From contig OX597818.1 in assembly GCA_951406725.2 (NCBI GenBank), positions 118,544,001 through 118,608,000 of the forward strand: 64,000 bases of DNA. Reading direction: 5' to 3'. The notes beneath the pieces were generated by a model that was not told the DNA's origin, ran no database searches, and saw nothing but the letters and a program-made list of their open reading frames with translations. The first letter of the stretch is position 1. Every line of letters starts with the position of its first letter. Origin of the DNA: Octopus vulgaris. Taxonomy: Eukaryota. The position numbers were made by a program, and so were the translations under genes. Of this stretch, positions 34,050 through 51,163 are shown piece after piece.

Positions 34050-34659
34050 AAGAGCTTTAGACACAGATAGCGATCTTTCAGAAATCACTTAAACATTGAA
34101 GTAAATAGTCGCTGTATTATATATATGTATATATATATATATATATTGCCCAGTTACTCAGCACGTCATCCGTTCCACCAGTTAAACTTAGTGTCACATG
34201 ACCAAAATTCTATTCAAATGACTTGCTACAGCCATATGTAGGTACGATGATTTGCTTTTTAAATTTAATTCCCACTTTGCTGTATCGAGAATATCTTGTT
34301 AAAAGGAAAGCAATAGAGCTGACAGAATTTTGTATAGGATTTCAATTGTAATTTAAATAATTCTAGCCATTGTCTTTCTTTTAAAAGAATCCTATCTGCA
34401 ACAGTGATTCATTGCCTGAATCAATAAAGTCCAAGAGAAAATTATTTGCCAACATTGTTCCTGACCATTTACATTCTGGATTTCTACCCGTTCCCCGAGG
34501 AAGAAATACCTTTCAAGCTCTATGAAAAGGCATTTCTAGCTATATGAAATACAAAGTACATACAAATAATTTTCTATCAATGATGAAGTATATTACGTGT
34601 GCATGATTCAACGCTGGTGATTTTTCACTTACAGCGTGGAACAATATATATATATACAC

Positions 34660-37410
34660 CCCAGGTCCTTTTTTCATACTCCAACTCGGTGTGTGACACA
34701 CTAATTGTACATATAAGGCAACTTGGTGTAGTTGTGTGTGCTATATATCGCCCTCCAGATGCCCCAAGCCATGTAGGCAAGTTTGAAGACTGCCTTATAC
34801 AAATAGAAGTTCTAGTCACATTAGAACAACACATAAGTGTACTTCTTATGGGAGACTTCAATCTACCCAATGTCAGATGGCCCGAGGGCCTTTCTCTCCC
34901 AGGAATGACACGATGTGAACGAGTACAGGCGAGGTCCCTCCTGAACCTCATCAACACCCTGTACATGGAATAAGTAATACTCCAACCAACCAGGGCAGGT
35001 AACACACTGGATCTCTGCTTCACAAATAATATTGATCTCATCCATAATGTGAAAGTGACACCGACACTACTCTCGGATCACAATATGGTAGAGCTGACCA
35101 TGTACGGGCCAAAGGAAAGCATGGACATGCAGCCTACAAGAAACTCTCAGAATCTTTCCAGCTTGAACTTCCATAAGGCAAACTGGAAACAAATTGAGAA
35201 AGAGATCCTCAAACAAAACTGGCCTGAATGTCTCTCCTCACCAGACATCGACGTGAAACTTCAACAATTCATGTCTGTAATGCAAGCCATATGCTACAAA
35301 TGTGCCCCAAGAACAAAATCCCCAGAGAGAGGAAAATTTTAATGAGACGACGTACAAAAATTTCAAATCGCTGAAACAAACAAATTGAAAGCAGTGAAAA
35401 GTCCCGCCTGAAAATAAAACTGTTGGAAATTGAAAAATGTCTGCAACTCTCCCATGAAAAGGAAAGAGCACGCAAAGAAGCCTGGGCTATAGACAACATA
35501 ATATCTAACCCCAGAGCTTTCTACAGGTATGCCAAATAAACAACTACGGTGCACTGTAGGATAGGGTCACGCCTTGAAAAGGATGGCACACTTACAGGAA
35601 ATCCAATGAGGGTAAGTGAAATACTGAATGAGCAATTCAAGAGTGTTTTCACTCCATCCCTTGGGCATTTCCAAATCACCAATCCAACTGACTTCTTTAC
35701 CACTGCAGATATAAAATCAGAGGCAGCGATGATTGATGACATCAATATAAAGGAAGCCGATGTAATAAAGGCTATAGATGAAATGGAAACTAACTCAGCT
35801 ACTGGCCCCGATGGATTCCCGGCAATCCTTCTAAAAGAATGTAAGAGAGTCCTAGCAAGACCACTGTTGTTCCTCTTTCAGAGCTTCCTTGCAACTGGCA
35901 AACTTCCAAGAAAACTGAAGGAAGGTAAGATATGCCCTATTCATAAAGGAGGTAGCAGAGCGGAGGCCAAGAACTACAGACCTATCTCTCTGACCTCACA
36001 CATCAGCAAGGTCATGGAACGAATAGTCAGAAGGAAACTAATCACCTTCCTTGAAGAAAATGACTTGCTGCCTGACACCCAACATGGTTTCCAACCAGGA
36101 AGTAGCTGCTTAACTCAGCTCCTACAACACTATGACTGAGTGCTGAAACGACTGCTCAACCACTCAAATGTGGAAGTGATATATCTCGACTTTGCAAAGG
36201 CCTTTGATAAAGTCGATCATGGAATGATCTGTCACAAACTGCGTGATCTTAGCATACTTGGAGAACTGGGAGAATGGCTTCATGACTTTCTGAAGGATAG
36301 AAGTCAGGTGGTAGTGGCCAATGTGGCCACTTCCATTAACACGCAAATAGTGAGTGGGCACTGTTTTGGGACCACTACTGTTCATAATGGCCCTCTCAGA
36401 CATGCCCTCAGCCACGCAGAGAGCCACGATCACAAGTTATGCAGATGATACAAAAGTTTCACAGGCAATACAGAACCCTGAAGACACTAATCACCTGCAA
36501 TGTGAGCTGGACAAAATATACAATTGGGCTGAAAAGAATAGCATGCAGTTCAATGCTGAAAAGTTTCAAGCTTTATGCTATCAGCATGCAAAACTAAATG
36601 CAATACCCAATGAACACACTGGACCCGGAGGGATTGCAATCCCAGAGGCACAATTAGTGCGTGACCTGGGTATTTACATGAGTGATGACGCAACCTTTTG
36701 TGCACATGTTGCTAAATTGGCAATGAAATGTAGACGACTGGCCGGATGGATTCTTAGAACCTCTAGAACAAGAGAACAAGAAACCATGATGGTCCTCTGG
36801 AGGACACTTGTCCTAAGCCACTTTGACTATTGCACTCAGCTATGGTCACCATCCAGTGTCAAGTTGATCACAGAACTTGAGGCGATCCAACGAAGCTACA
36901 CGAAGAAGATAGCCTCTGTGCAGCATATAAGGTACTGGGAAAGACCCAAGAGATTAAAACTCTATTCCTTGGAGCGTAGGCGAGAAAGATATGCCATAAT
37001 ATATATCTGGAAGGACTTGTCCCAAACTTTGGCATCGAGAGTTACACAAATGCAAGAATTGGGCGCCACTGCGTAGAGCCAAGGACTCCAAATTTGCCAT
37101 CAAGATGTAGGACAAGATACTGTGATAGCCTGGGCTTCAGAGGGCCACAGCTCTTCAATATCCTCCCGAAGAAGCTGAGGGACCTGCATGGGGTGGATGG
37201 GGATGTCTTTAAAGTAGGACTGCATCTCTTCCTGTCGGGTGCCACGGATGAACCAAGTTCACGGCAGGAGGTGCAGATGAGGGCAGCTGCATCGAACTCT
37301 CTCATGCACCAAATGGCAGTTGCTAAAAAGCATTCGTGAAGTAAAATCATGTAGCAACACCAAATGGCGGCGCCCCAGCATGGCCACAGCTTGTGAGCTG
37401 AAACAATATA
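34660..37410 (+). mobile_element. 5'-truncated, decayed CR1-group LINE (APE endonuclease plus RT ORF2 pseudogene, 3' UTR stem-loop)
   Basis: APE motifs IYRPP, MGDFNLP and SDHN. RT motifs GPDG, NYRPISLTS, QHGF, YLDFAKAFDKVDH, GTVLGPLLF and YADDTK. C-terminal LEAIQR and LYSLERRR. Several stops and frameshifts. Confidence 0.92.
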
Positions 37411-37436
37411 AAATATATATATATATATACATATAT

Positions 37437-37695
37437 ACTCTTTACTCTTTTACTTGTTTCAGTCATTTGACTGCGGCCATGCTGGAGCACCGCCTTTAGT
37501 CGAGCAAATCGACCTCGGGACTTATTCTTTGTAAGCCCAGTACTTATTCTATCGGTCTCTTTTGCCGAACCGCTAGGTGACGGGGACGTAAATACACCAG
37601 CATCGGTTGTCAACAATGCTAGGGGGACAATCACAGATACAAAAACATATGCACACACACTTATATATATATATATATACATATATACATATATA
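37437..37695 (-). mobile_element. SINE family A, 3' half, tail-to-tail with the CR1-group LINE
   Basis: Near-identical to 61067-61316. Ends at the internal (TA) tract of the SINE. Confidence 0.88.
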
Positions 37696-38199
37696 CGTTC
37701 CTTGATTGTGATGTTGAACTTAAAAATGGTTTATGACTATTTAATTTTTTTCCCACTAGGCCGCTGGTGGCAATAAGATTCTACAAAATTTTTTTGCCAC
37801 CCTATATTGATTAATTATGAATTTTCTGGTTAGTTCCGTAATGGAATCGGCGGCTTATATTTATTTGCTGCCGATAAATTTGGCGCGAGTGCGATGATTT
37901 GAAAATTTTAGGTCAGATATTGCCGAGGCAGGGACGAGAATGCCTCGTGAAAAATATCTGTTCCGACTTGGCTATTTCTTACTGATGAATCTAAGGGCCT
38001 ATGGTAGATTGGCTTGATTTAATTTAATCAGGTTAGTTTACCATTAAACAGTAGACGAAACGGTGCATCGTATAAGAAATTACAGGGTAAATGTTTTTTT
38101 AATTTTCTCCTGGTTTACGGAATTGATGTTATTTTGCGGTTGAAGCTTTTGGCTGTTATTTCTAGTGGGTGAATGGCCTATTATGGCCGTTCCTTGATT

Positions 38200-38204
<5 letters not shown>
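37696..38204 (+). mobile_element. Retrozyme-like terminally redundant 492-nt unit containing a hammerhead ribozyme
   Basis: CGTTCCTTGATTGTGAT at 37696-37712 and 38188-38204, (TA)n on both flanks, no ORF, several hairpins. Confidence 0.7.
37974..38080 (+). ncRNA. Type I hammerhead ribozyme with a ~68-nt extended stem II
   Basis: ATTTCTTA CTGATGA ATCTA...TAGAC GAAA CGGTGCATCG TA TAAGAAAT. 8-bp stem I, canonical core, near-palindromic stem III, predicted cleavage after A38072. The first stem II pair is A-C in this copy. Confidence 0.82.
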
Positions 38205-38230
<26 letters not shown>

Positions 38231-38571
38231 TACGTAACATAAGAGGTACACACAATTAGTTCACAGATTGATTTCCTGCTTTAGCACCAACTTGAACTAT
38301 AAATAAAAATATGCTCTCTAACTGAGGATTGCCTATAAACAATGTTTCAGTCTATTTGGTACATGCATCATAAAATAATGGTAATGACAGGAAAGTAAGT
38401 TGGTATCTCAGTAGTCAGATTATGACATTTAAATATTTATATGTGCATGCAAACCGAAAGGAGAAAATTTTTTTTTCTATATAAGTATATAAATTACATT
38501 ATCTAATTAGATACAGTTTGTCTGCCTGTCTCTAATCTAGTATACAAACCAGCATAATATATATGCATAAA

Positions 38572-38626
<55 letters not shown>

Positions 38627-38636
38627 AGTAAGAGAA

Positions 38637-38672
<36 letters not shown>

Positions 38673-40671
38673 GTATAAGGCAGCACATATTTTGCTTGGT
38701 ATATCTACAAGAATTGTAACAGAAAAATCAAGTTATCTTCAATTTTTGTAATGCATTATAAATATCGTAGGATAGATTTGAAATTACGTTCACTGCATAA
38801 AACATTAATTCAGTTTATAGTAGGTGACCTACTCCAGATAACAACCATACTCATTTCCGAAAATATCCATTCCCTTTGGGAGTTTCAAGTCACTCTGCAA
38901 AATGAAACATATTACAATTCTTTAAAATAGTGCCTTCATTGTAATGAAATTCCAAAACCAAAAACAAAATAAAGATATAATAATAATAATAATAATAATG
39001 TATAAATTGCTACGTAATATATGTAAGATCAATTCCCAGTGGTGCTGGCAATGCATTTTGATTCCGCTCATGTCAGATGAATTAAGCGTTATTAAACTAT
39101 TAGAATGTACCCGTTTCAACTTGTAATTTCTGAACTTTGCTCACTAAACGCAATATTTATTTACATTAAGAAAGTTATACGTTCATTTATTGTTTAATCC
39201 GATGTCAGATCTGATCAATTAAATTTACGACCGTAGGCGCTAAAAATATGTCTACTCCGTATGTTTTCAGTCCTAGTATCTCTTGGGCATGAGTTACAAA
39301 ACCCTATTTCTTTATAAGATGATAGGTTATATATCATTAAGAGATTTAGCTGCTATTTCTAGCAGGCAGCATGGGGGTGTTGATATTTTGTTTCTTAAAC
39401 GTGATTGAGATATGCTATAGGAAGATTAATCATGAACAAGTATAGGAGCTCCAATGTCATCTTGTAGTATTTCTTCTTTTCTACAACGCAGAATCTTCTC
39501 TCTTTCTCCCCCAGAATCTCGTTGGCCACGATCAAAGATGCTTTCCTGGCAAATTCCATTGGATTCGGATCCCATTACCCAAATTAATGCTAACAATGTC
39601 ACTCTCAAATCATTAACACCATTGATGATACTAGAATATACATCAAGTCGACAGATACACAGCACTCAGCTTGTCGTATTTGTTCTACCTTATAACACAG
39701 AGTGCTCTCCCTTTGTTTGAAGGTAAGTATATAATATTCCTTGAACGTTGAGGGGGGAATTGTGATTCAGAGAGTTAATAGGATGAAGCGGAATGTTTAA
39801 AAATGATGTTTAAAATTAAATGTTTGTCTCATTCGCTTCGCATTTAGTTCGGGTTAAAAAAAAAAAGAGGAGTGAGATGAATTTTCAGTTGGAATGTGGG
39901 GCAACTAGTTATGGTCATACTGCAGAAAAAGCTAGAGATAGTTACTGGAGGATGCGGAGGTTGGCTTCAGATATGATATCCGTTTTAATTGCTAATCTGT
40001 GCTGCAAAAGTTAGCTTTTATATCAATATTTAGCTTGTCAATATATCGCTGAATTAAATGAATTTGATACCAAGATTTAATAGATGTCTCTCCTTGGTTG
40101 ATATGGTACTAAGTAGATCTGATATCTAGTTTTTTTGTAATATGCAGTCATGTATGTGATGTTAGAAGCAGAATTGTAGTTGCTATCGTTTGCATAGTTT
40201 TCGTTATATCAATGGTCTGATGATGACGGTTATGTACCTGTCAAGGTTATGTACATAGCAGTATCTGCGCTGTTGCTAAGCATTTCAGAGTGAATTTGAA
40301 AGGATGAATTGGTGTAATAATATTCAAATCCAACGGCATGTGCGTGCAACTTATCTTTTATCATGATCGATGCCTATGAGGGGGCAATTATTAAACATGT
40401 CGAATGAATATAATAGAGATAAGTTTGGAAGCCGTTTAACTTTTACATCAGGGGTTGTTATTGCTTTCATTAAATTGTAAATTCGCATGCCTTATTTTTA
40501 ATCACAAAATGTTAATGAAATTAGGCGAATTTGTAAATTACCTAGTTCGAAGCAATCAGGAGGTCAGTATTTTTATAGCGATAGTCAGAATGTGTTACTG
40601 GTAGGTTTTATTCAAATTAATCTTCCAGCAGCTCTTAGCCTGTACCATTAGCAAGATCAAACAACATATTG

Positions 40672-40893
40672 ATTTCAAATTTTGACAGAAGTCCAGCAAT
40701 TTCATGGGACGGGATAAGTTGATTTCATTGTACCCAGCACTGAACCAATACATATTTCATCAACCTCTAAAGGATGGAAGGCAAACTCGACCTCGACAGA
40801 ATTTGAACTCAGAACATAAACACGGACGATATTCAGCAAAGCATTTTGCATTTTATCCTGCATGCTAAATATTCTGCGTGGTCATCGCCCTAA
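40672..40893 (-). mobile_element. SINE family B, diverged
   Basis: AAAGGATGGAAGGCAAACTCGACCTCGACAGAATTTGAACTCAGAAC matches the family in reverse. Imperfect TSD CAA(C/T)ATATTGA-like flanks. Confidence 0.75.
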
Positions 40894-42022
40894 GTTTCAA
40901 CAATATATTGAAAACTGAAATAAGCTGCAACTAGCTTATTCGCTGCTAGAGGAATGTTATCCTGGTTATGCAGAAAAAAAAAATAAAATAAAACCTTCAT
41001 ATAATCGCTATAGAATATAGACATCCGATCACAACACCAAATCTGTGATGATTTGCATCAAATTGTTCTGCATCCTGAAATACTAAAGTACAGAATAAAA
41101 GTAGAAACTATTGACTTTTAATATTGTCAATAACTTGCATTGATTTGGCTTCCGGGAAGCTAAAGGTAAACTTATACAGTGTGGAATAAATTAGATTTAC
41201 ATGTTTGCATTAATTAGCATCCTACGCATTGAAAAACATAGTTGCGCAAATAAAGAACGTTAGTTCATCAGATCACCAGAGCAAGATTCAAACCAACGAT
41301 TTAACTCGGAATACAATTGCTGGACTTATTGAACATTTTTAACCACAGCGGTACTTATCGACAAGTCAGACCAGAGGAATTGAAAGAATCGACGTCATAC
41401 AGAGACAGTACGTTATTTTAATGACTCCGTAATGACAACGGTCAGAGTTGACCTCGATGGATTTTCTGTCCAGAACCTTAAGCCATTTTTGTAAAAATAG
41501 ACGAATGGTTACATGACATCGTATGAGTTACGTGTTTTGCACTAGCAGTCAATACTTTCTCCTGAAAGGAAAAGAAAAAAAAGAACATCCAGTGGTTTCT
41601 CTCAGGTCACAATTTCGGAATTATTTTTTTTATTCGTAGTGAAATTCTCTGACATTGAACCGGTTACTATTATAGGGTATGATAATGAAACGAACGAACG
41701 AGAAGCAAGTAAAACATTTCACATTAAAAGCCTATAACAAAAGAAAACGACAATATCTTAGAGGGTTGAAAAGCTTGCAGTCTTATCTTTGCGAATTCTA
41801 CACTTTGAGACATTAGGTTACATTGGAGAAGTAGGAATGGAAATCACACAGCTAAGTAAACTGTGTGAGAGAAAACCAAAAACGAAAGATGTGGTTATAT
41901 TCATTGGACAAAGCAGAGTTATATTAAATAGCCCTGTAGTATTTTTATAATCAAAAGTATGTAGCTAAAATGTCCACAATGATTTATAGAACCGTTACTG
42001 TGTGACAATAAATATTGGTGCT

Positions 42023-48823: not shown

Positions 48824-49811
48824 CAGTGTGTTCAAAGATTCCCTTAGCAATGAATTTGTTTATCCTGCGCATGTGCAACTTGGCTATTTCTGCGTGGGCG
48901 GTCGGGTTGTCAGCCATTGCTCCTCAGTCATTGTGTACCCTTCAGTGAGTCGACATGCTAACCATTGAAGAACGTACGTTTTTAGTTGAATAGGTGTTTC
49001 GAGAATAGGTGTTTCACTGAAAGAGAAGTTCAGTGAAACTTTTGCAAATATTGTTGTTCCACATCGTTACTCCGTGCAGGATTTGATAAGAAACTTTAGA
49101 AACACGTGACCAGTGGAAGATGCAGCAAGATGCGGTAGGTCTACTGTTCTTTCAAACTAAACTCTCCAATATTTCTGATAAACTGTTGGCAAGTCCGACA
49201 ATGTCCTTACACAAATTGTTACAGGAAACGGAACACAGCCCAGGAAGTGCTCACACGCCAGTAAAAAAGAAATTAAATTTTATGTATTGAAAATGAAGGA
49301 CGACACTTTCAACACCTATTATAAAGATTTTTTAAGTCTTGTAATGTCTAAAATATCCTTTTATAGTATTATACTATCTTATAAATATTTATTTTGTAAT
49401 AAAATACTTATTATGGAGAGAAGTTCAGTGAAACCTTTGCAAATATTGTTGTTCCACATCGTTACTCTGTGCAGGATTTGATAAGAAACTTTAGAAACAC
49501 GTGACCAGTGGAAGATGCAGCAAAATGCGGTAGGTCTACTGTTCTTTCAAACTAAACTCTCCAATATTTCTGATAAACTGTTGGCAAGTCCGACAATGTC
49601 CTTACACACATTGTTACAGGAAACGGAACACAGCCCAGGAAGTGCTCACACGCCAGTAAAAAAGAAATTAAATTTTATGTATTGAAAATGAAGGACGACA
49701 CTTTCAACACCTATTATAAAGATTTTTTAAGTCTTGTAATGTCTAAAATATCCTTTTATAGTATTATACTATCTTATAAATATTTATTTTATAATAAAAT
49801 ACTTATTATGG
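48824..49811 (+). mobile_element. Tc1/mariner transposon left end with decayed transposase N-terminus, partly tandem-duplicated (395-bp period)
   Basis: TA|CAGTGTGTTCAAA TIR-like start. From ATG 48955: MLTIEERTFLVE*VFRE...EKFSETFANIVVPHRYSVQDLIRNFRNT*PVEDAARCGRSTVLS, resembling the HTH plus GRP-linker of mariner-type transposases. Confidence 0.7.
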
Positions 49812-51163
49812 AGAGATTTTTAAAACACCTTCGAGTAACAAGTCTTCTGGTTATATAATACTTCCTCTAAACATCTGTAGAATACAGAGATGTTTTACAC
49901 TACCAGCGTATTACACGGTCGCGGATCGCAACATCTAATAATCTTCTTCGAAATAGTAGAAAATAGTGTGAAACGAACACATTCATTTTCCCGTCTATTA
50001 AAATGACAATTGAAAGTAAATGCATTTAACTGAATTATTCTAAAGAATAAATAAGATTTTCAATCTATTGTTCCATTGATAATGAGGGAAAAAAATTATT
50101 CATTATTTTGGACCACATCATTTTGTAGATAATAATTAGGGCTAATTTTCGAAACTACAATCTGTTCCTTCTCACATACATTGGATGGGGGGAGGGGGTA
50201 TTTTGTATTTAGCTACGAATCTGTTTCCATGCCGATGAGAAAATTTGATTTCCTGAAGCACTGAAAAAGCGATTTCTGTAGAACTCATTTTACTTTTTCT
50301 CTTCCTGGAATATACTTCGATTCGATACAATATTCCCACAAACATTTTAAACATATTTAACATTTTGCAAAAAATATTTACGCATTCACAACTGTAATTA
50401 CAATGAAAACGAGCCGTTTCTTTATTTGAAGAGAATTTAAATATACATTTAGCGATAGGTGTGAATAATTCACTTCCTGAAATTCTGAAAAGTGAAAACA
50501 TTGTGAAAAAAGAATAAAAGATATTTAAGAGCAGAAAAGCGATGAAAGTTTCAAATGTAATGACTCGAAACCAATTCTCAAAAGGCAATAAACTATATCA
50601 AACTATACAAAGTACACACAGTACACATTATATAATGTGTTCATTCTGTTTTGTTTTCTGAATATATTTGTAAATGATATTGCACTGAGATTTCTTTATT
50701 TCATGTTTTTCTTAATTTCCGCATATATAAACTTAAATAGCCTAATCTGAGTAACCATAATTGTTGGAAAATTTCGTTTTGCCCTCTCGAGGGACATTAT
50801 CTGAAGTGGATTAAGTCTGTTCAAACCTTAATTAGAATATGGACGTGTAAGTACTCCCGTTCTAAAGTTTTACTAGTAGAGGGAAAGGTTATAAAAATGT
50901 ACACAAAAGTGGATGAAATTTATAGTCATAAGTAGTAATTCGTCGAGAGTTTTGTTGCAAACTATCTTTATTATCTTGACATATTGACATGAAATCATAA
51001 GATACTGAAATAATCTTGAGGGAGTTACAATTGCAAAATATTAATTTTAATATAGACGTGCATAGAAGAATTAAATTCAAGTGTTAAGGTAGACTTAAGT
51101 CCATTCGCAAACATTACGCTTTTTGTTAATATCTATCTATCTATCTATCTATCTATATATCTA

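Follow-up and report, generated by a model that had tools for sequence, protein, structure and literature searches.

The window, that is, the whole stretch of 64,000 nucleotides of Octopus vulgaris DNA analyzed here, contains a 509-nt insertion which lies between two (TA)n tracts and carries a type I hammerhead motif on the + strand. The following features were assigned to the locus (positions are those of the window):

37662..37695, strand not applicable: left (TA)n target tract
37696..38204, + strand: whole insertion, consisting of a 492-nt unit plus 17 nt; a 5′-truncated single arm ending at site B
37696..37712, + strand: 17-mer of the preceding unit, an internal read-through of site B
37713..37818, + strand: 106-nt "tail" from site B to site A, found in inverted insertions at one end only
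37797..37818, + strand: site A, second fixed 3′ end and putative second start of reverse transcription; read through in the window copy
37974..38080, + strand: type I hammerhead motif, 107 nt
37974-37981/38073-38080, + strand: stem I, 8 bp, part of the type I hammerhead
37982-37988 and 38057-38060, + strand: core CUGAUGA and core GAAA
37989..38056, + strand: extended stem II with a 5-bp base, a 7x7 internal loop, a 19-bp G-U-rich helix and a 6-nt loop
37989-37993/38052-38056, + strand: stem II base, 5 bp, with A.C at 10.1/11.1 in the window copy
38001-38019/38026-38044, + strand: 19-bp stem II extension with five G-U pairs
38060..38071, + strand: self-complementary, palindromic stem III
38072, + strand: GUA cleavage site by sequence motif, predicted cut after A38072
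38188..38204, + strand: site B, fixed 3′ end of insertions and putative start of reverse transcription, 132 nt downstream of the cleavage site
38203..38230, strand not applicable: (TA)n target tract on the right, whose first AT also belongs to the element end

Site B corresponds to unit position 17/509 (window 38204), while site A is located 238 nt downstream of the cleavage site at unit position about 123 (window 37818). Both flanks are (TA)n tracts as described in the initial annotation, and the 17-mer reported there was found at both ends of the insertion (37696-37712 and 38188-38204) with a period of 492; there is no third site in the window with up to 2 mismatches, and the pair did not occur in 100 shuffles. 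The annotation had also taken this repeat not to be a target-site duplication. This was correct and the duplication can be ruled out, as the 17-mer is present once per unit within the arrays described below. The repeat as such is therefore real, but it has no special meaning as terminal redundancy: the window copy would be one B-primed arm whose copying ended at 509 nt, and since this is 17 nt past one round, the redundancy is an accident of 5′ truncation with its chance stopping point. Copies of this 5′/B type without an inverted arm were seen in 17 of 120 insertions.

Left of the insertion, a broken LINE (34587-37400), in which stops and frameshifts interrupt the endonuclease and RT frames, ends shortly before it. 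Between LINE and left (TA)n tract lies a SINE-like repeat of very high copy number (37440-37630), the depth of which far exceeds that of the rest of the stretch in each of four sequencing runs. No tRNA was found in window 37000-39000. Two further tandem repeats are located elsewhere in the window, a 395-nt unit present twice at 98% (49022-49816) and a 182-nt unit present 3.5 times at 92% (1112-1747). Within the unit, 18 nt (38147-38164) resemble, with one or two mismatches, a short motif repeated in the unrelated loci L038, L073 and L191; this likeness may be coincidental or stem from a fragment of another repeat that was captured.

The hammerhead is anatomically complete as annotated, with stems, core, palindromic stem III and GUA site all in place. 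Folding of the 107-nt motif gave -33.3 kcal/mol (z -4.85) on the + strand and -19.1 (z -2.6) on the − strand. The whole 509-mer reached z-scores of -5.0 and -4.35 on the two strands and is by itself not strand-specific, because both strands score well. The motif, for the hairpin of which function on this strand only had been proposed initially, folds far better on + than on −. Likewise, the 19-bp helix with its five G-U pairs exists in the window copy, but it is perfect in only some copies of the family, pair 38005/38040 being U-A in 42 of 94 insertions and broken in the other 52. The minimum-energy fold predicted for the monomer differs from the active hammerhead and should be inactive, since the 3′ strand of stem III is base-paired with UGAUG of the core. 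In the monomer stem III could form 4 bp and a tetraloop. Stem II has its internal loop at a distance of 5 bp from the core, in the place of loop 2, which in type I hammerheads makes a tertiary contact with stem I. An Rfam search, also suggested initially, gave no match of a hammerhead model at E≤1 in window 35000-41000; the seven matches obtained were all to miRNA models, on simple repeats and one flanking repeat. This non-detection is probably due to the 68-nt span of stem II, and the long stem II would then be the reason why Rfam-type searches miss such ribozymes.

A genome search with the unit (2.8 Gb, 227 contigs) yielded 1,526 candidates, 40 of which were scored, with at least 171 matches at 95-100% identity among the matches listed. 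Exact patterns, the counts of which are lower bounds, were found 922 times for stem III, 2,034 times for internal read-throughs of site A, 845 times for the junction of A with (TA) and 419 times for that of B with (TA), while the reversed-pattern controls gave 0 matches each. The source genome thereby holds more than 2,000 units, in dispersed arrays of one to nine full units inserted in (TA)n on many contigs, with unit periods of 484-494 nt and a GC content of 36.8%. Among 29 representatives the median divergence was 5.3% and the maximum 11.6%. Multiple copies and tandem arrays had been expected in the initial annotation and were both observed; the free circular permutation expected along with them was ruled out, as only the 5′ ends vary and the 3′ ends are fixed at two sites. 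One unit (L174:2343-2798) belongs to an otherwise normal A/B insertion and lacks several short internal stretches, a part of stem II among them. The unit was also covered by assembled contigs of six sequencing runs, none on record as RNA, and runs from two organisms contained it. Its depth relative to the neighboring LINE fragment was about 0.15-0.34 in three presumed-RNA runs and about 0.9 in one run of unknown kind, and these ratios were used neither way because contig depth is no measure of expression.

Like the known non-LTR retrozymes, the unit forms short multi-copy tandem repeats with a type I hammerhead motif per unit, is non-coding and non-autonomous, and has a GC content below 50%. 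Judged by the sequence-level criteria used for animal retrozymes, the family appears to be a young and real retrozyme family. The element class is already known, and no host function is indicated. Literature searches, with Repbase, Dfam and the supplements of two papers outside their coverage, returned no cephalopod retrozyme and no account of paired retrozyme ends; the family may already be catalogued in these sources. For the giant squid, 235 Rfam hammerhead loci have been reported (PMC6962438).

To describe the insertion ends, 120 insertions were mapped in 116 loci, which comprised 23 of the 30 loci of top identity (7 overlapped others), 40 loci chosen by end motif, 40 by hammerhead and 13 by read-through motif. 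On the hammerhead strand, 5′ ends are scattered over the whole unit, and 3′ ends lie at the two sites 106 nt apart. Over all insertions 71 A/B pairs, 0 A/A and 0 B/B pairs were counted, a total that includes the 40 regions chosen by one end. The cleanest sample is formed by all contig-C1 loci with the exact stem III motif, a choice blind to the ends. Its 38 insertions comprise 21 of type A/B with both 3′ ends facing outwards, 8 of type 5′/B, 3 of type 5′/A and 6 with one or two other ends, again with 0 A/A and 0 B/B; a TA-rich flank adjoins each of the 38 on one side or both. If A and B were chosen independently and equally, 21 mixed pairs out of 21 would have a probability near 5 × 10−7.

A single head-to-head inversion junction was present in 79 of 107 insertions. 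These junctions show an overlap of at least 2 nt (36), are blunt or overlap by one base (14), or contain a gap (29); one is the stem III palindrome itself. In 14 of the 79, the stopping points of both arms fall within 10 nt of one position, compared to 4.0 in permutations (0 of 10,000 reach 14). Partial tandems with 5′ truncation, an inverted 5′-truncated arm and a tail at one end only, here of 106 nt and resulting from the two 3′ ends, are the layout of PLE-type insertions (PLE, Penelope-like element). The strict A/B rule, the 106-nt tail and the long stem II are new features, and the junctions may link a retrozyme to PLE enzymes. Palindromic junctions of PLEs have been read instead as self-priming on an antisense template (PMC3846280), and the 14 near-symmetric junctions of the unit fit this reading, too. 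Exactly at the cleavage site, 2 of 186 5′ ends were found. Just downstream of it (unit positions 378-400), 21 5′ stops were counted against 8.7 expected, in an interval chosen post hoc, and the interval 392-414 over a T run gives an equal excess (21 against 9.3). Because of the post hoc interval, the T run and the two exact ends, the pile-up was not accepted as proof of cleavage.

The end structure also bears on the view that the family is a satellite or DNA-level element, which would expand by unequal crossover or DNA rolling-circle copying and carry the hammerhead as a relic. Local expansion by unequal crossover has been proposed for vertebrate retrozyme arrays (10.64898/2026.07.22.740005), and periodic variants in long arrays fit block duplication. 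However, the family bears several marks of RNA-templated insertion: its arrays are short and scattered over many contigs, 3′ ends are fixed and 5′ ends variable, the A/B rule applies, and variation is biased towards G-U on one strand. This explanation is therefore very improbable, and a DNA-level route is largely refuted as the main route.

Variation of the hammerhead was counted in 94 insertions, and pair changes on 29 representatives more than 1.2% apart. The conserved core of type I hammerheads (C3-A9, G12-A14, A15.1-U16.1, H17) is present in the unit and was intact in 53 of 54 pieces spanning the hammerhead. All four bases are found at N7 (53 U, 20 C, 12 G and 9 A). Position 17 has A in 70 insertions, C in 23, U in 1 and never G, and the remaining core positions show 1 deviation in the 94 insertions. 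The 10.1/11.1 pair of type I hammerheads is usually G-C. At this place the family has A-U (57), A.C (24), G-U (12) and U.U (1), with G-C in 0 of the 94 insertions. Consequently, A37989 is the normal base of the family and not a lesion, C38056 is the minority state, and the A37989G repair proposed initially is baseless.

In the helices of the 29 representatives, 97.1% of the cells are paired. Changes on both sides occurred in 6 of 38 pairs, which was matched by 2 of 500 shuffles and compares with 0-1 in slid controls; these shuffles ignore relatedness, and some of the stem I changes may be due to alignment register. Among the pairs changed on both sides is the center of the stem III palindrome, where 6 of 94 insertions have AU instead of GC. 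This change would fit a helix between two molecules (a dimer), the sole context requiring its pairing. Shared variants changed Watson-Crick pairs to G-U 16 times and to A-C 3 times, an excess that points to + as the structured strand. The invariance of the core compared to the rest of the unit (1 of 11 versus 125 of 462 variable columns) was not significant (p 0.30) because the family is young. In the covariation analysis proposed initially, the covariation term of RNAalifold was small (-1.3; 2 of 132 pairs), and the consensus fold differs from the active one. From the variation pattern of the core and the compensatory helix changes, the hammerhead looks to be under selection at the RNA level.

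Which RNA served as template was approached by comparing the units within arrays. The cleavage site is crossed by 125 of 164 arms, twice or more by 51 and at most 7 times. Units differ by a median of 0.25% within an arm and 0.43% between arms, compared to 4.9% family-wide. The nearest other locus is about as close (0.51%), so that within-array identity agrees with a monomer circle as well as with a multimer. A total of 163 variants within insertions was counted in 37 insertions, 73 being private and 44 common to three or more other loci; these shared variants amount to 27% (44/163), where 8-16% were expected, and a single monomer circle does not explain the excess. In 6 insertions, variants recur in every second or third unit of one arm. 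As far as can be told from such sequence patterns, circles of one to three units and uncleaved multimers would fit alike.

It is possible, although we lean against it, that the PLE-driven insertion proposed below uses a long linear, uncleaved array transcript as template, with no need for a circle and with the hammerhead as a passenger or serving another step. For a lizard PLE, normal insertion was reported even with a mutated hammerhead, the substrate being mainly unprocessed RNA (PMC11167929). In the octopus family, this explanation agrees with arms reading through the cleavage site up to 7 times, with the excess of within-array variants common to other subfamilies, with locus L005, where a unit carries several alleles of another subfamily, and with the monomer fold predicted to be inactive. 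However, truncation shortens every daughter array (the median insertion length is 908 nt), so that long arrays need regeneration. Furthermore, the variants recurring in every second or third unit suit a dimer or trimer circle, as they would a later block duplication, and the variation pattern of the hammerhead looks selected.

The unit is non-coding, as stated in the initial annotation: the longest open frame in a 9-unit array has 68 aa, and a PLE protein search found no PLE coding sequence inside the 120 insertions. PLE protein matches near insertions occurred in 7 of 116 loci, all of them 407-1,679 nt outside and separated by a TA run. An ORF with RT and GIY-YIG endonuclease, as autonomous PLEs have it, is absent from the unit. 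No coding sequence continuous with the unit was found by a GIY-YIG family search, one RT protein search and inspection of 40 end-motif regions, and no locus mapped has an LTR-internal-LTR layout. Near one insertion there is an open frame of 798 aa (L135:2138-4534) without match to PLE proteins.

In none of the 120 insertions is the unit merely the fixed terminal repeat of a coding Penelope element. A related explanation is that the unit is the pseudo-LTR (pLTR) of a further coding PLE of the genome or an internal-deletion derivative of one, the copies being its truncated ends. In favor of it, 24 of 57 Xenopus retrozyme families match known TEs, nearly all of them PLE termini (10.64898/2026.07.22.740005). 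A pLTR has hammerhead, short end and tailed end in the order seen in the unit, and the search for a coding partner scored 150 of 6,136 GIY-YIG candidates. On the other side, arrays contain as many as 9 directly adjacent full units with no coding DNA, and the few PLE protein matches all lie outside the insertions behind a TA run. These findings exclude that all copies are termini and are still compatible with a pLTR origin, which we nevertheless regard as rather unlikely.

Candidate enzymes for insertion in trans are encoded in the same genome, in which GIY-YIG elements gave at least 148 matches (150 scored of 6,136 candidates). A homologue search gave RT/GIY-YIG proteins; the few with a named source came mostly from bivalve-symbiont bins, and no cephalopod was among them. 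Two young families with RT and GIY-YIG endonuclease, both in (TA)n, were characterized:

L064:247-5460 (G000:C6), also L061-L069, L074 and L075: 781-aa Neptune-like PLE with a pLTR of about 500 nt and (TA)n targets
L186-L204, e.g. G000:C2:16700500-16710400: 775-aa Neptune-like PLE, very young, with a 32-nt tail

Both have a CX4CxxC linker, a feature of the Neptune and Nematis clades (PMC8557442), and they are called Neptune-like from this linker and not from a tree. In the 781-aa family, a 479-aa frame without clear Pfam match lies upstream and overlaps the main frame, and the tail has 38 nt. The family also has a minimal hammerhead-like motif, the core of which shows the U3-A8 variant described earlier (PMC4209133). 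In the 775-aa family, 76 of 76 scored copies are 100% identical over 573 aa, and a relaxed scan of one locus gave no hammerhead. Short and tailed ends, both in (TA)n, are 38 nt apart in the 781-aa family and 32 nt apart in the 775-aa family, and they are paired in 4 of 4 inverted copies scored (three opposite-strand pairs of the 775-aa and one copy of the 781-aa family). No DNA common to the unit and either family was found, the best matches being 13-43 nt at E 0.29 or worse, with the exception of one separate 53-nt fragment of the unit itself. Also, no terminal sequence common to the unit and PLEs was found among 57 GIY-YIG or RT loci compared.

Compared to metazoan non-LTR retrozymes of coral, mussel and axolotl (PMC7229834) and of vertebrates (10.64898/2026.07.22.740005), the unit is similar in being a non-coding tandem unit with a type I hammerhead each, a GC content below 50%, a highly paired predicted fold, thousands of units and PLEs in the same genome. 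With 484-494 nt it is longer than the 150-450 bp given in PMC7229834 and falls inside the 51-972 bp of the vertebrate survey (10.64898/2026.07.22.740005). It differs by the 68-nt stem II arm with its 19-bp extension, by having no G-C at 10.1/11.1, and by its insertion into (TA)n. It also differs by its two fixed ends and its inverted arms, which are not described for retrozymes in the sections of the two reports considered here. Furthermore, cleavage and circles were demonstrated for metazoan retrozymes (PMC7229834, 10.64898/2026.07.22.740005), whereas both are putative for the octopus unit. Dimer-type hammerheads from newt and axolotl satellites and the minimal hammerheads of PLEs (PMC4209133, PMC3088659) share with the unit the self-complementary stem III, the tandem context and a compensatory change from GC to AU at the center of the palindrome; in contrast to these, stem III of the unit could give 4 bp and a tetraloop in the monomer, and stem II is far longer. 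With endonuclease-bearing PLEs of the Neptune clade (PMC8557442, PMC3846280, PMC11167929), the insertions have in common partial tandems, 5′ truncation, an inverted 5′-truncated arm, a tail restricted to one end, insertion into microsatellites, a hammerhead located upstream of the 3′ ends, and palindromes or microhomology at inversion junctions. In contrast to these PLEs, the unit has no ORF and a full-size hammerhead instead of a minimal one, and its tail has 106 nt compared to 30-40 nt in published PLEs and 32 and 38 nt in the two Neptune-like families of the genome.

Considering ends, junctions and coding content, we regard the unit as probably a non-coding, non-autonomous element of the non-LTR-retrozyme type with a conserved hammerhead motif and two fixed 3′ ends, which would be copied in trans into (TA)n by the RT/GIY-YIG protein of a Neptune-type PLE. 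According to this explanation, arrays would be transcribed on the + strand, and the hammerhead would cut weakly or only as a dimer, giving rise to monomers, multimers and circles. The PLE enzyme would nick both strands of a (TA)n tract, of which one would prime at B and the other at A with a match of only 1-3 nt. Both cDNAs would then be extended upstream, over as many as several units, with a circular or an uncleaved multimeric RNA as template, and their two ends would be joined head to head, often via short microhomology. For the lizard PLE, cutting and extension of both strands of AT-rich DNA was observed in vitro, together with two internal start sites bounding the tail, and the enzyme is predicted to be a dimer (PMC11167929). 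Against the explanation count the non-cleavage of predicted Xenopus retrozymes, 8 of 9 of which were not cleaved in vitro (10.64898/2026.07.22.740005), as well as the few exact 5′ ends (2 of 186) and the absence of G10.1-C11.1. The missing DNA overlap between the unit and both Neptune-like families, the non-significant core invariance, the small covariation term and the excess of variants common to other loci weigh against it, too.

A bolder version, which is speculative and in our view unlikely to hold in full, is that one dimeric Neptune enzyme primes both nicked (TA)n strands at two fixed points of a single small RNA circle and moves around this circle in parallel, each complete event thereby leaving one A and one B end, and that the enzyme is hijacked by RNA shape alone without shared sequence. 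If this were true, the whole integration cycle of Penelope would be naturally recorded in the short insertions, and the one-sided tail of PLEs would be explained generally.

In the papers considered here, the movement of animal retrozymes by PLEs has been argued from co-occurrence, shared hammerheads and pLTR similarity. In the octopus family, the insertion junctions themselves bear the putative PLE footprint. The formation of PLE tails and inverted arms was called undefined (PMC8557442), and the strict pairing of two fixed ends provides a testable model for it. With a 490-nt non-coding RNA, mapped putative start sites and two intact candidate enzymes in one genome, the family would offer a compact system to study this process in vitro.
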